NCBI GenBank assembly: GCA_049967855.1
Contig: JBMFRX010000002.1
Location: forward strand, 1-64,000
DNA length: 64,000 nt
Origin: Caldisericaceae bacterium
GTDB taxonomy: Bacteria; Caldisericota; Caldisericia; Caldisericales; Caldisericaceae
Direction: 5' to 3'
Below are positions 15,425-19,390 of the stretch, one piece after another; the stretch's first letter is position 1; each line of letters opens with the position of its first letter. The notes below the pieces were generated by a model. It was not told the DNA's origin. It ran no database searches and saw only the letters and a program-made list of their open reading frames with translations. The position numbers and the translations under genes are program-made.

Positions 15425-16083
15425 GTACAATTAAACAAAATGTGGAAAGGCTACTTTCTGAAATTCCAAATAACGTTCTATTGTTGGCGGCAGTTAAAGG
15501 AACAAGCGCATCAGAGGTAAATGAGGCAATAGATGCTGGTATAAGAGCCATTGGTGAAAATTACCTGCAAGATGCTATATCAAAATTTGATGCCGTTGGG
15601 CATTCTGTTGAATGGCATTTTATAGGGCACATTCAGGAAAGAAAAATCAAGAAAATAGTTGAGATGTTTGACTTAATTGAAACGGTGGATTCTTACAAGT
15701 TAGCTTTGGAGATAGACAGACAGTGCAAGATTGCTAGCAAGAAGATGCCAATTTTTATTGAAGTCAACAGTGCCAAAGAACCCCAAAAGTCTGGAGTGCT
15801 TCCAGAAGAAGTGAAAGATTTGGTTGAGGAGATATCAAAACTTGGAAATGTTGACATACAAGGGCTAATGACAATGGGTCCTGCGGGTAAAACAGGCGAG
15901 GACATCAGGCCTTATTTTAAATTGACAAGAAATCTTTTTGAATCAATCAACAAAGCTTGTTCACCTGTCGTCAGAATGAAATATCTTTCAATGGGGATGT
16001 CAGATTCTTACAAAGTGGCTATCGAAGAAGGAGCAAATATAGTTCGCATTGGTACGTTGATATTTGGCCCTCGTGAGATATGA
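15421..16083 (+). CDS. yggS: Pyridoxal-phosphate homeostasis protein YggS
   Basis: GENYLQ, WHFIGHIQ, GLMTM, LSMGMSDSY..AIEEGA..VRIG. Confidence 0.93.
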   Translation: MSTIKQNVERLLSEIPNNVLLLAAVKGTSASEVNEAIDAGIRAIGENYLQDAISKFDAVGHSVEWHFIGHIQERKIKKIVEMFDLIETVDSYKLALEIDRQCKIASKKMPIFIEVNSAKEPQKSGVLPEEVKDLVEEISKLGNVDIQGLMTMGPAGKTGEDIRPYFKLTRNLFESINKACSPVVRMKYLSMGMSDSYKVAIEEGANIVRIGTLIFGPREI

Positions 16084-16086
16084 TGA

Positions 16087-16638
16087 CTATCGTTTCTTCT
16101 TCAGGAATTCAAAAACAAAAAAGCATAATCCAATGGTAAGTATGACGTCGCCGATGCTGTACACCCCTGCGTACGGCTTAAGGAAAGTTGGAGCAATTAT
16201 GTCTCCTAAGAAATTGAGATGAGTCTTTGCAGACATAATCGTGCCATTGTAATAAGAGCCATATTTCTGAAGCAGATTAATCTTTTCAAACTCACCAATG
16301 AGCTGTAATTTTGATATATCTTGTGGCATGTAGCCACCATTAGCAACAATGACAGCTGTGTTGAGCAAGAAGCCTATAAGAATGATTCTTATCCCTGTAT
16401 ATTTTAGGTTAATCAGGACCACAATAAGCAACATCAAAAGAGAAAGCATATAAAGGTATGGGGTGAAGAAGGCAAAATTAGAGGAAGCAAATTTGTCGTT
16501 GAATATAAAAAACTGTAACGCAAACCCTAGAAGTATCAACGCAAAACCTTTGAACTGCTTGTTTTCAACTCCTCTAATGCCCTTGTTAATTACAATTGCA
16601 AAGACTGTAACTATTACAACTGCTGCTGCGAGAACCAT
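16087..16638 (-). CDS. DUF5317-family membrane protein
   Basis: G..LN...ANGGYMP, L.FLGDII and YSIGDVI motifs; overlaps the 3' end of the HD-GYP gene by 25 bp. Confidence 0.8.
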   Translation of the reverse strand: MVLAAAVVIVTVFAIVINKGIRGVENKQFKGFALILLGFALQFFIFNDKFASSNFAFFTPYLYMLSLLMLLIVVLINLKYTGIRIILIGFLLNTAVIVANGGYMPQDISKLQLIGEFEKINLLQKYGSYYNGTIMSAKTHLNFLGDIIAPTFLKPYAGVYSIGDVILTIGLCFFVFEFLKKKR

Positions 16639-17957
16639 GCCTCTATCTTTGAACGTGCGTCATCTATTATATCTTGATATTTCTGTTTATTTTCTCTCAC
16701 CATTTTTATAAAAACATCTGCAATATGAGGGTCAAATTGTGTTCCCCTGTTTGCATAAACTTCATCGAGAGCCTCGTCAATTGTTCTTGGATTTTTCTTG
16801 TAGTTCCTTGGAGTGGTCATAGTATCAAAAGCATCTACAACTGCAATTATTCGGGCACCAAGTGGAATTTGTTCGTTTGGAAAATTATCCGGGTAGCCAG
16901 TTCCGTCGTACCTCTCGTGATGGTGTCTTATCAGGTTGGCGCCTTTTCTAAACCTGGTGAGGGAGCCTGCAATTTTGGCACCATCTACAGGGTGAAGCTT
17001 GATAACTTCATACTCTTCATGGGTTAGCTTTGCTTTCTTTTGAAGGATTTTATCTGGAATCGCAATTTTGCCTATATCATGAAGCTTTGCACTCATTACT
17101 ACAACATTTGCTACATCCTCATCCACATTTAACGCATCGCAAAGGTCTCTTGTAATCTTTGCAACTCTATCGGAGTGAAACATAGTGTCAGGAATTCTTG
17201 CATCTACAACTGCAGCTAGAGCGTATAAAGCTTGTTCTGTTTCTTGAGTAACCTGCACATCGCGCTTAAGAGCAAAATACACCGCAATAAATGTAGGAAT
17301 TATAAAAAGATTCATTAATGGCTGTGTTTGAAAAAAGAAGATGATTACAAGTCCAAGGAAGAAAAGTGCTAAAAGCGTGAAAAAAACTTTTTTCATATTT
17401 TTATACCAGAAAGGAAAAAAGGGTCTATTGTTAAGTATTGAAAGGAGCCCAAAAAGAGACACAGAATCTAATATTAAATCAATTAAGAAAGCAGTTATTA
17501 CGATAAGGAGATTGTGCGGAGTAACAAGCTGTGTGCTGAAAGAGTAATTGCCGTAGAAAAATAAGCTTGTGACGCCTATTTCTAGACCTATTTTTGAACT
17601 ATTGAAAAACAACTTTACAGGTTGTTTCTTCGTAATTGTGTCTGATAATAACGTGGAAGTAAATGCCAAAACGAATGCAATTAACGGGTTAAACAAGAGT
17701 GCTACTGCGAAATTTATTGCAAATGTAAGTGTTATCTCAGCCTTATTTTCAGAAGCATCAATTGAATAAACTATCGGGAATAAATCAGCTAAAATATCTG
17801 CGGCTATTAAGCACAAAATTATTACTACTGTCTTTGTCGAGTGTAGACTGTCTATAAAATTTGTTTTGAACATTACAGCAAAAACTGCAAATACAACAGC
17901 AAAAATCAACCACTCCAAAGCTATAAACAGCCTTGCCTTAACAGGAAGTTCTTTCAT
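16614..17957 (-). CDS. Multi-TM sensor fused to an HD-GYP cyclic-dinucleotide phosphodiesterase domain
   Basis: ~230-aa hydrophobic N-terminus; HSDRV, LHDIGK, HP..G, HHERYDGTGYP, DAFDTMT..R.Y, GTQFDP. Confidence 0.9.
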   Translation of the reverse strand: MKELPVKARLFIALEWLIFAVVFAVFAVMFKTNFIDSLHSTKTVVIILCLIAADILADLFPIVYSIDASENKAEITLTFAINFAVALLFNPLIAFVLAFTSTLLSDTITKKQPVKLFFNSSKIGLEIGVTSLFFYGNYSFSTQLVTPHNLLIVITAFLIDLILDSVSLFGLLSILNNRPFFPFWYKNMKKVFFTLLALFFLGLVIIFFFQTQPLMNLFIIPTFIAVYFALKRDVQVTQETEQALYALAAVVDARIPDTMFHSDRVAKITRDLCDALNVDEDVANVVVMSAKLHDIGKIAIPDKILQKKAKLTHEEYEVIKLHPVDGAKIAGSLTRFRKGANLIRHHHERYDGTGYPDNFPNEQIPLGARIIAVVDAFDTMTTPRNYKKNPRTIDEALDEVYANRGTQFDPHIADVFIKMVRENKQKYQDIIDDARSKIEAWFSQQQL

Positions 17958-18064
17958 AACAACTTATTATAAACAAAAAGCCAAAAACAAAGAAATATCT
18001 CCCTTACCTTATTCTCTCCTCATATATTAAACTAGTAAGAAGTTTTCTTTTAGATTTTTACTTC

Positions 18065-18151
18065 TTAATGCCACTTAAGGCTTGCTGCAACTGACATTAC
18101 AAACAGTGCTACTCCAAGAATCAATGCTAAAACTTTGCTTCCCCACTTCAT
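18065..18151 (-). CDS. 28-aa signal-peptide-like precursor MKWGSKVLALILGVALFVMSVAASLKWH (downstream copy)
   Basis: Manual translation; GGAAGGTGA RBS 5 nt before ATG; TAA stop; basic N-terminus, hydrophobic core, V-A-A, then SLKWH. Confidence 0.8.
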   Translation of the reverse strand: MKWGSKVLALILGVALFVMSVAASLKWH

Positions 18152-18184
18152 TTCATTCACCTTCCTTTTTTAGATTTTTACTTC

Positions 18185-18271
18185 TTAATGCCACTTAAGG
18201 CTTGCTGCAACTGACATTACAAACAGTGCTACTCCAAGAATCAATGCTAAAACTTTGCTTCCCCACTTCAT
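18185..18271 (-). CDS. 28-aa signal-peptide-like precursor MKWGSKVLALILGVALFVMSVAASLKWH (upstream copy)
   Basis: Identical in nucleotide sequence to 18065-18151, with its own RBS. Confidence 0.8.
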   Translation of the reverse strand: MKWGSKVLALILGVALFVMSVAASLKWH

Positions 18272-18312
18272 TTCATTCACCTTCCTCTTTTAGATTTTTT
18301 ACTTCTAATTAA

Positions 18313-18339
18313 ATTATGTATAATTTGGAAATTTGTCAA
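18313..18339 (-). promoter_or_regulatory. Candidate promoter of the peptide genes
   Basis: TTGACA(18339-18334)-15 bp-CATAAT(18318-18313), ~40 nt upstream of the first peptide ATG. Confidence 0.5.
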
Positions 18340-18361
18340 TATCTTTTGCAGATAAAATTGG

Positions 18362-19390
18362 CTAATTCTTTTTCCTTGTAGCAAGCTGTCCACATGCTGC
18401 CGAAATCTCTGTACCTTTTGATTTTCTGAGAGTTGCTCTGATATTTTTGGAAAGCAAAAAACTCTGAAATTCTATTTCCCTTGGGGATGGTTCGAAGTTA
18501 GCAAAAGGCACTTTGTTATAGTGAATCAAATTTACCTTTGAAGATTTTAATTTACTCACAAATCTTACAAGTTCTTTGGCATCTGCAATTGAGTCATTAA
18601 AATCTTTTATAAGCAGGTATTCAAGAGTAACTGTATTCTTAGTTTTGGAAAAGTAATAGTTTATCGCACTTTCGAGCTTGATAAGGGTGTTTTCTTTTAA
18701 GCCAGGCATTATTTCATTTCTTTTTGCCTGGTTTGCGGAGTGCAATGAAATTGCAAGATTTACCTGACCAAGCTCATCAGAAAGTTGGTAGATTTTCTCG
18801 ACAACTCCTGAAGTAGAGATTGTGATTTTTCTCTTTCCGAAAGCCCTGCCATATTTATCTGTAATAATATTAATAGACTTCTTTAAGTTGTCATAATTTA
18901 GAAGTGGTTCACCCATTCCCATAAAAACTATGTTGTTAATTGGGTTTACGTTGTCTACCAAGAGGAACTCCTCTAAGATTTCGCCTGCAGCAAGATTTCT
19001 CAACAAGCCCATTTTTCCTGTGGCGCAGAACTTGCATCCCAGAGAACAGCCAACTTGCGAAGAAAGGCAAATAGTGTTCCTTTTATTGCCAAATTTGTTT
19101 TTCTCTCTTATAAGGACTGTTTCAATCAGCGAGGCGTCTTGTAATTTAAAAAGGTATTTTGTTGTGCCATCGTCTGAATTTATCGTATCAGTTGCCTCAA
19201 ACGCATAAATGTAAAATTCATTCTGCAAATGCGCTCTCAACGCCTTTGGCAAAGTTGAAATCTCTGAGAATGACGAGAGTTTTTCTTTGTATACTGCATT
19301 AAATATTTCTCTTGCCCTGAAGGCTTTTTCTCCAACTGATACAAAATAGTGTTCCAATTCTGTTAGTGTAAAATCCTTAATATCTTGCAT
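18362..19390 (-). CDS. rlmN: Dual-specificity RNA methyltransferase RlmN
   Basis: CLSSQVGCSLGCKFCATG radical-SAM motif, MGMGEP, ISLH, AACGQL. Confidence 0.95.
   Translation of the reverse strand: MQDIKDFTLTELEHYFVSVGEKAFRAREIFNAVYKEKLSSFSEISTLPKALRAHLQNEFYIYAFEATDTINSDDGTTKYLFKLQDASLIETVLIREKNKFGNKRNTICLSSQVGCSLGCKFCATGKMGLLRNLAAGEILEEFLLVDNVNPINNIVFMGMGEPLLNYDNLKKSINIITDKYGRAFGKRKITISTSGVVEKIYQLSDELGQVNLAISLHSANQAKRNEIMPGLKENTLIKLESAINYYFSKTKNTVTLEYLLIKDFNDSIADAKELVRFVSKLKSSKVNLIHYNKVPFANFEPSPREIEFQSFLLSKNIRATLRKSKGTEISAACGQLATRKKN

Follow-up and report, generated by a model that had tools for sequence, protein, structure and literature searches.

The window analysed here is a stretch of 64,000 nt (positions 1 to 64,000 of contig JBMFRX010000002.1, assembly GCA_049967855.1, from a Caldisericaceae bacterium), and our subject is a compact gene cluster within it, in which two micropeptide genes precede the genes of a membrane HD-GYP protein and of a DUF5317 protein. 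All locus coordinates are window positions, and every feature lies on the minus strand. The two micropeptide genes, 28 codons plus a stop each, are located at 18185-18271 (copy 1, an open reading frame (ORF) with a profile match) and at 18065-18151 (copy 2, identical to copy 1 in its DNA). Both encode the peptide MKWGSKVLALILGVALFVMSVAASLKWH, and the ribosome-binding site (RBS) GGAAGGTGA sits 5 nt before the ATG of each copy. After a spacer of 107 nt comes the start of the HD-GYP gene (16614-17957, 447 aa; HD_5, E 2.9e-37), which overlaps the DUF5317 gene (16087-16638, 183 aa; PF17248, E 5e-29) by 25 nt, an arrangement that suggests coupled expression. The first-pass annotation of this DNA had described the same anatomy, with two identical RBS-preceded 28-codon genes, a multi-transmembrane (multi-TM) HD-GYP protein and an overlapping DUF5317 gene, and our searches bear it out. 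Both peptide genes are contained in a 120-bp tandem repeat of 2.2 copies (18046-18306; Tandem Repeats Finder, 97% matches, score 506), and the genome has no other place of this kind; each repeat unit carries an RBS and a 28-codon gene, so both were duplicated together. Judged by their gene content and conservation, the peptide, the DUF5317 protein and the putative membrane domain of the HD-GYP protein form a real, conserved and undescribed three-gene membrane module.

To characterize the small ORF, we compared it with its relatives. A peptide profile made from 11 sequences recovers both window copies in a six-frame search of the genome (E 7.6e-15). Related genomes have an ORF of 27-28 aa (pattern MKWG..A..KW[HY]) that is preceded by an RBS and followed by the HD-GYP gene. 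Eight orthologues of 28 codons were compared, seven of them from relatives and one being the second window copy; codon positions 1, 2 and 3 differ by 244, 118 and 368 changes respectively, and the substitutions in the hydrophobic core are conservative. Beyond these, an alignment query returned 155 protein clusters at E<=0.01, whose names, where given, are “hypothetical protein” and none of which carries a Pfam domain. Because the changes fall mostly at third positions, the orthologues have an RBS and the family comprises 155 clusters, the small ORF is, on this comparative evidence, a real gene under selection for its protein product. NCBIfam holds no family for the peptide or for DUF5317, and Pfam holds none for seven longer homologues of the peptide. 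The peptide family is a hidden one, mostly missed by gene callers, and the present locus is the first context assigned both to DUF5317 and to this unannotated family of small proteins.

The layout of the peptide was summarized from 135 family sequences, which had been chosen by an MKW start, so that the N-terminus is not an independent statistic. The tail Trp is present in all 135 sequences, and the residue before it is Lys in 131 and Arg in the other four. Position -4 is Ala in 134 of 135, position -5 is Gly, Ala or Ser in 130, and one or two residues follow the Trp in 131. In 132 of the 135 sequences the invariant Ala comes exactly 17 residues after the last charge on the N-side, and the resulting span from Lys/Arg to Lys is 20 residues. 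The general plan is thus a basic N-side, 16 uncharged residues, the invariant Ala and then x-x-Lys-Trp. Cys is absent from the window peptide and occurs anywhere in only 13 of 135 family members. Since the N-side is basic and there is one hydrophobic segment, the peptide is predicted to be a single-pass protein with its N-terminus inside and its C-terminus outside, its A-x-x-K-W tail lying at the outer leaflet. Some variants were also observed. Peptide P0215 has a duplicated tail (...DQKWHVLLDQKWH), and at L184:286-423 a second, degenerate copy ending ...GAGWKCYG is located between an intact copy and the HD-GYP gene. Two genomes whose DUF5317 has no HD-GYP neighbour, G096 (L199:1495-1666) and G095 (L198:1302-1379), encode KW-tail peptides elsewhere, ending ...SGANLKWW or ...GGANLKWW; in one of this pair, two tandem KW-tail copies are convergent with a gene for a major facilitator superfamily (MFS) transporter.

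Within Caldisericota, the peptide profile was found in 29 of 93 genomes, all of them in two families, f1 (13 of 25 plus the window genome) and f2 (15 of 23), and in none of the 44 genomes of five other families. DUF5317 was found in 27 of the 41 relatives searched. For the 41 genomes searched for both, 16 contain peptide and DUF5317, 11 contain DUF5317 only, 14 contain neither, and none contains the peptide only. In 10 of the 11 genomes with DUF5317 only, the contig ends within about 210 nt of the gene pair or inside it, or DUF5317 itself is present as a fragment only. In 23 of 26 loci DUF5317 is immediately preceded by the HD-GYP gene; of the three misses, two are contigs ending inside DUF5317 and one is a DUF5317 fragment. 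The number of peptide copies per array in this phylum is 1, 2, 3 or 6, and the copies inside any one array are all identical. For example, the single-contig relative G008 contains six identical tandem 28-codon copies with a period of 104 nt, directly upstream of its HD-GYP and DUF5317 genes (L042:2037-2640). Several assemblies break in or beside the array, such as that of G025, in which a contig starts with the last 20 codons of one copy.

Outside the phylum, a scan with one genome per species gave 351 DUF5317 relatives, and the best 80 loci were examined. By their record titles, these 80 loci belong to Caldisericota, Thermotogota, Bipolaricaulota/Acetothermia, Bacillota (Peptococcaceae), Chloroflexota, Spirochaetota, Actinomycetota and others. 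A domain scan was made on 70 ORFs, 67 upstream of DUF5317 and three long ORFs containing DUF5317 itself; it turned out that 25 of the 70 match HD_5 (several together with Pfam MASE9), seven have the architecture GAF-GGDEF-EAL, five are DinB_2 and three are methyltransferases. In a first listing of RBS-preceded hydrophobic small ORFs, made with no motif criterion, seven loci had ORFs of 37-48 aa upstream of HD-GYP that start with MKW and end with [GA]-A-x-x-K-W-x-x; they come from Thermotogota, Bipolaricaulota, a spirochaete and an unclassified bacterium. Related small ORFs were then found beside DUF5317 in at least 37 of the 80 loci, by a family hidden Markov model together with a motif search independent of it, the motif being 18 hydrophobic residues followed by two small ones, x-x-[KR]-W and, after 0-3 further residues, a stop. 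The motif search by itself was positive for 32 of 80 loci on the DUF5317 strand vs 0 of 80 on the opposite strand, which served as an internal control. In Peptococcaceae, Bacillota and many Chloroflexota the peptide ORFs are located downstream of DUF5317, and one Peptococcaceae locus has two identical peptide copies. On these sequence comparisons, the putative peptide is linked to DUF5317 and a predicted MASE9-type domain in at least six phyla (Caldisericota, Thermotogota, Bipolaricaulota, Bacillota, Chloroflexota and Spirochaetota). The absence of similar small ORFs near homologous DUF5317/HD-GYP pairs had been named beforehand as the observation that would count against the first-pass annotation; such ORFs are present in many genomes and phyla, and its view of the three genes as a conserved unit holds both for co-inheritance within the phylum and for the distribution across phyla.

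The constant parts of the trio are the peptide, DUF5317 and what we predict to be a MASE9-type membrane domain, while the output domain varies between HD-GYP and GAF-GGDEF-EAL. The MASE9-type domain can be called the common partner because the TM domains align across both kinds of output: in an hhalign comparison of the N-terminal domain of the window protein with the TM domain of the GAF-GGDEF-EAL neighbours, the probability was 97.5% (E 5.8e-12) over 221 columns. This linkage to MASE9-type c-di-GMP enzymes (cyclic diguanosine monophosphate, c-di-GMP), kept across phyla and output types, weighs against a reading of the peptides as membrane-active toxins or bacteriocin-like products, for which DUF5317 would provide immunity or export and HD-GYP would be a mere neighbour. 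It is true that the peptides are short, hydrophobic and multi-copy, and that fusions of DUF5317 to MFS transporters exist. The 25-nt overlap between HD-GYP and DUF5317, suggestive of coupled expression, speaks against a chance neighbourhood, however, and the searches matched neither an antisense RNA family nor a known family of toxins, so we consider the toxin explanation highly improbable.

The position of the peptide genes bears on another explanation, in which the small ORFs would be cis-acting leader peptides (upstream ORFs) whose translation tunes the downstream genes, the peptide itself having no function. They do precede the HD-GYP gene of the window immediately and in the same orientation, with 107 nt left to its start, and no promoter specific to HD-GYP passed the promoter scan. 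But the protein sequence is kept while the codons drift, the span of 17 residues is fixed in 132 of 135 family members, and the peptide gene follows DUF5317 in other phyla. As to the RNA, no significant structure was obtained for the spacer from peptide copy 2 to HD-GYP (folding z -0.85), the spacer between the two peptide copies does not fold, and no Rfam family was matched in 15500-19000 at E<=1, so that no c-di-GMP riboswitch was found at this locus. We therefore hold a leader function to be very unlikely.

The window protein of 447 aa is predicted to be a membrane-bound HD-GYP c-di-GMP phosphodiesterase. Its HD_5 (PF13487) score is 128.5 bits against a cut-off of 27.2, and the motifs HDIGK...HHERYDGTGYP are intact in the C-terminal domain, just as the first-pass annotation had read them. 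In 29 aligned orthologues, H293, D294, E348, G354, Y355 and P356 are invariant and H347 is nearly so. The genome itself (G000, 1.3 Mb) has seven GGDEF matches, three HD_5 matches and no EAL match; c-di-GMP thus appears to be made here, HD-GYP-type enzymes appear to be its only known hydrolases in the genome, on which its breakdown would rest, and the window enzyme is therefore one of three candidate c-di-GMP hydrolases.

The N-terminal part of the protein (about 230-235 residues) contains seven hydrophobic segments and is probably a MASE9-type multi-TM domain. Pfam MASE9 (PF20972) is matched by 13 of the 29 aligned orthologues, with a best E of 1.8e-11. The known MASE9-HD-GYP phosphodiesterases, such as TM1467 of T. 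maritima and HdgA of S. venezuelae, have the same build, with an intact HD-GYP domain behind a polytopic membrane domain at the N-terminus (bioRxiv 10.1101/2021.11.05.467447). They differ from the present case in that the available text of this defining preprint names neither DUF5317 (0 occurrences) nor a small peptide partner, and in that the window protein itself does not reach the threshold for MASE9. Galperin and Chou argued in the same preprint that MASE9 binds its ligand within the membrane, and described its external loops as short and poorly conserved. HdgA, the only tested MASE9 member in the available sources, gave no phenotype, and its authors suspected that an activating signal was missing (PMC6205966); HdgB of the same species is a degenerate HD-GYP protein and not a DUF5317 (PMC6205966).

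DUF5317 is present in a single copy in the genome, and the window protein scores 101.7 bits against the PF17248 cut-off of 25. Among 52 diverse members, 13 residues are invariant, i.e. Q42, N77, G89, N93, N100, G102, M104, P105, L144, D146, S161, G163 and D164. The AlphaFold2 model has five TM helices (pLDDT 93.6). Based on the positive-inside rule, a loop of 60 residues with invariant residues and the start of the last helix are predicted to face outward, and the invariant polar residues of DUF5317 and the invariant tail of the peptide are then both at the predicted outer face. Searches of the DUF5317 model with Foldseek against PDB at E<=0.001 gave no match, the DUF5317 profile gave 0 matches against PDB sequences, and ESM Atlas gave no usable match. 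Co-folding of the MASE9 part (residues 1-240), DUF5317 and the peptide yielded ipSAE values of 0.02 and 0.01, which carry no weight for or against binding. Natural fusions of DUF5317 are rare and comprise a PAS-GAF-GGDEF-DUF5317 protein (925 aa) and DUF5317-MFS_3 transporters (P0121; L152:3692-6160; P0123-P0125).

Taken together, we propose that this locus codes for a membrane input module made of three parts and serving a c-di-GMP phosphodiesterase, a reading to which we give a probability of roughly 50%. The 28-residue product would be a single-pass membrane micro-protein that stays in or at the membrane. An outward-facing invariant pocket of DUF5317 (N100-G-G-Y-M-P, D146 and S161-x-G-D164) would engage its tail, the invariant Lys of the peptide pairing with the two invariant Asp. 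In this way DUF5317 would bind the tail and may also trim the peptide, for which a cut after the invariant Ala is possible. The MASE9-type TM domain would then sense, sideways in the bilayer, in what state the peptide or its pair with DUF5317 is, and would set c-di-GMP hydrolysis accordingly, while the tandem identical copies would raise the peptide dose. Such a reading within the membrane fits the argument of Galperin and Chou on in-membrane ligand binding. The data show the genes, their conservation as proteins and their inheritance together, along with a predicted topology and an intact catalytic motif; every physical contact in this scheme, any cleavage and the direction of regulation are what we infer. 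The three partners are kept together in at least six phyla, and for this reason they look to us like a membrane input device that has not been described so far, and not like a proven signal between cells. For MASE9, an input domain found widely in c-di-GMP enzymes, the peptide and DUF5317 would be two constant genetic partners that bear on what it senses.

Several observations weigh against the proposed input module. The window protein stays below Pfam MASE9 both as a whole (E<=0.01) and for residues 1-240 (E<=0.1). In four metagenome-assembled genomes, which have the closest DUF5317 in the search outside the phylum (62-63% identity), a methyltransferase is located upstream in three of the four, and no HD-GYP or peptide was found within the DUF5317 locus; KW-type peptides were detected elsewhere in three of these four genomes with weak E of 2e-5 to 0.09. 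Within the phylum, G015 (L043) keeps DUF5317 and an HD-GYP ORF of 346 aa that has lost its N-terminus, and no peptide was found in the 1.2 kb upstream or in the whole genome; this locus looks like a decaying copy of the module. Besides, related genomes are not independent, so that the evidence is weaker than the within-phylum counts suggest. It is also unusual for a regulatory subunit to be encoded in as many as six identical copies when its sensor is of low abundance.

There are precedents for small membrane proteins that cross the bilayer once and regulate a sensor enzyme, such as MgrB and SafA with PhoQ and MzrA with EnvZ. Similar to these, the window peptide is predicted to be single-pass, is shorter than 50 residues and is genetically tied to a membrane sensor, on which it is presumed to act. 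Unlike in these systems, the output of the trio would be c-di-GMP turnover, DUF5317 is always involved as a third conserved membrane protein, and the peptide family spans at least six phyla with arrays of up to six identical copies.

A proteolytic sub-case of the proposed module concerns DUF5317. Here DUF5317 would be a dedicated LspA-like aspartyl membrane peptidase with the micropeptide as its signal-peptide-like substrate, and MASE9 would sense the membrane-retained remnant or the rate of cutting. We compared the DUF5317 profile by hhalign with 28 LspA sequences from the same genomes, and D146 and D164 were placed, in a weak alignment, on the LspA aspartates of “V-x-D-F” and “F-N-x-A-D”. 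These correspond to Asp118 and Asp136 of S. aureus LspA, the catalytic dyad at the outer surface (PMC6952399). The spacing between the two Asp is 18 residues in both families. The alignment score of 20.4 was reached by one of 200 column shuffles (mean 12.3, standard deviation 2.3), and the reversed profile gave 14.6. Peptidase_A8 is also the commonest second Pfam family among DUF5317 members, co-linear but sub-threshold (6 of 52 members, best E 0.058). With the first structure model, the LspA chains 5dir and 6ryp ranked 6-7 of 48,161, with a Z of 4.9, root-mean-square deviations (rmsd) of 3.1 and 2.9 A and 17-20% identity, although Z below 8 is common for helical bundles according to the notes of the structure aligner.

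Against this, the hhalign probability is 2.5-4.9%, below significance; the best Peptidase_A8 (PF01252) score is 14 bits against a cut-off of 25, and the window protein itself has no match. The Foldseek and PDB-sequence profile searches were both empty, as given above, and in a replicate with the model of another family member 5dir was no longer among the top 50 and 6ryp stood at rank 35 (Z 4.5, rmsd 5.3 A). The known LspA (MEROPS A8, PF01252; 5DIR and 6RYP) resembles DUF5317 in being a small membrane protein in which two Asp, spaced by 18 residues and set in similar local motifs, lie at the outer surface, as is predicted for those of DUF5317, and the peptide partner of DUF5317 resembles a signal peptide followed by small residues. 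It differs in having four TM helices instead of five and in lacking any significant sequence or fold match to DUF5317. The candidate substrate of DUF5317 has no lipobox Cys, canonical LspA is present in the same genome and in all 31 of the 31 genomes searched, and most of the other conserved LspA residues given in the available text of PMC6952399 (e.g. D109-R110) have no counterpart among the 13 invariant columns. The fold and profile evidence for LspA homology is in the noise; DUF5317 and LspA seem to share a similar local two-aspartate layout, while homology and an LspA-like peptidase activity are tentative possibilities, the latter in our view more probably wrong than right. The first-pass annotation had cast DUF5317 as the processing enzyme of the system; this idea is live but weakly supported, the two invariant outward-facing Asp, weakly aligned to the LspA dyad, and the sub-threshold Peptidase_A8 matches speaking for it and the structure matches to LspA lying in the noise.

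A bolder form of the proposal, rather unlikely in our estimate, is that DUF5317 is the founding member of a new class of membrane peptidases with two aspartates, and that its only substrate would be the co-encoded signal-peptide-like micro-protein of fixed length. The cut, or the fit of a 20-residue Lys-to-Lys “ruler” to the bilayer, would report the state of the membrane (thickness, fluidity or temperature), and MASE9 would read the product in the membrane. If true, this would mean a proteolysis- or lipid-coupled input to c-di-GMP enzymes, common to many, largely thermophilic, phyla.

A diffusible signal had been the center of the first-pass annotation, and it is the least supported part of it. 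In that proposal the precursor would be cut after the invariant Ala (V-A-A|SLKWH) and the Trp-containing pentapeptide would diffuse as an autoinducer to be sensed by the TM domain, i.e. quorum sensing with a c-di-GMP output. Peptide quorum sensing with processing is known from agr (AgrD/AgrB/AgrC) and Phr/Rap, and the enterococcal pheromones are cut from the signal peptides of lipoproteins. The present locus is similar in that a small precursor-like gene is clustered with genes of membrane proteins, and a C-terminal penta- or hexapeptide might be released in principle. The predicted topology puts the tail outside, small residues precede it (G/A/S at -5 and Ala at -4, the latter in 134 of 135), arrays of 2-6 copies would suit a product that is consumed, and the two outward invariant Asp of DUF5317 align weakly to the LspA dyad. 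However, pheromones usually diversify, whereas here the tail is the most conserved part across phyla (Trp in 135 and Lys in 131 of 135), which disfavours such a signal. All copies in an array are identical, too. The seven ORFs from other phyla, in whose selection MKW played no part, keep the MKW N-terminus, a conservation that a mere signal peptide would not need. HD-GYP, DUF5317, RlmN and YggS are the only neighbours, and there is no gene for an exporter, an AgrB-like protein, a kinase or an RRNPP regulator next to the trio, so that the locus differs from agr and Phr/Rap in lacking an AgrB, histidine kinase or RRNPP homologue and in its second-messenger output. The external loops of MASE9, short and poorly conserved in the account of 10.1101/2021.11.05.467447, also count against this reading. 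A secreted quorum signal is not supported by these data, and we judge it improbable.

That the three-part system is uncharacterized, as had been supposed, agrees with our literature search, in which no paper on DUF5317 or on the trio was found and nothing relevant came up for PF17248, IPR035168 or the neighbours of TM1467. The search on MASE9 found one relevant preprint, the one cited above, whose available text is silent on DUF5317 and on a peptide partner. We thus found no published description of the trio.

The flanking genes of the locus were assigned by family search to rlmN and a YggS-type gene, and the terminator scan found no terminator between the genes of the locus. A promoter with TTGACA had also been claimed for the peptide genes. 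The -35-like hexamer is indeed present at 18335-18340 on the minus strand, 22 nt past the rlmN stop, as read by eye, whereas its -10 element is imperfect and the consensus promoter scan did not return it. For the HD-GYP gene, the ATG has no Shine-Dalgarno sequence and a TATAAT lies 8 nt before it (17958-17990), and therefore this gene may have its own promoter and a leaderless mRNA.

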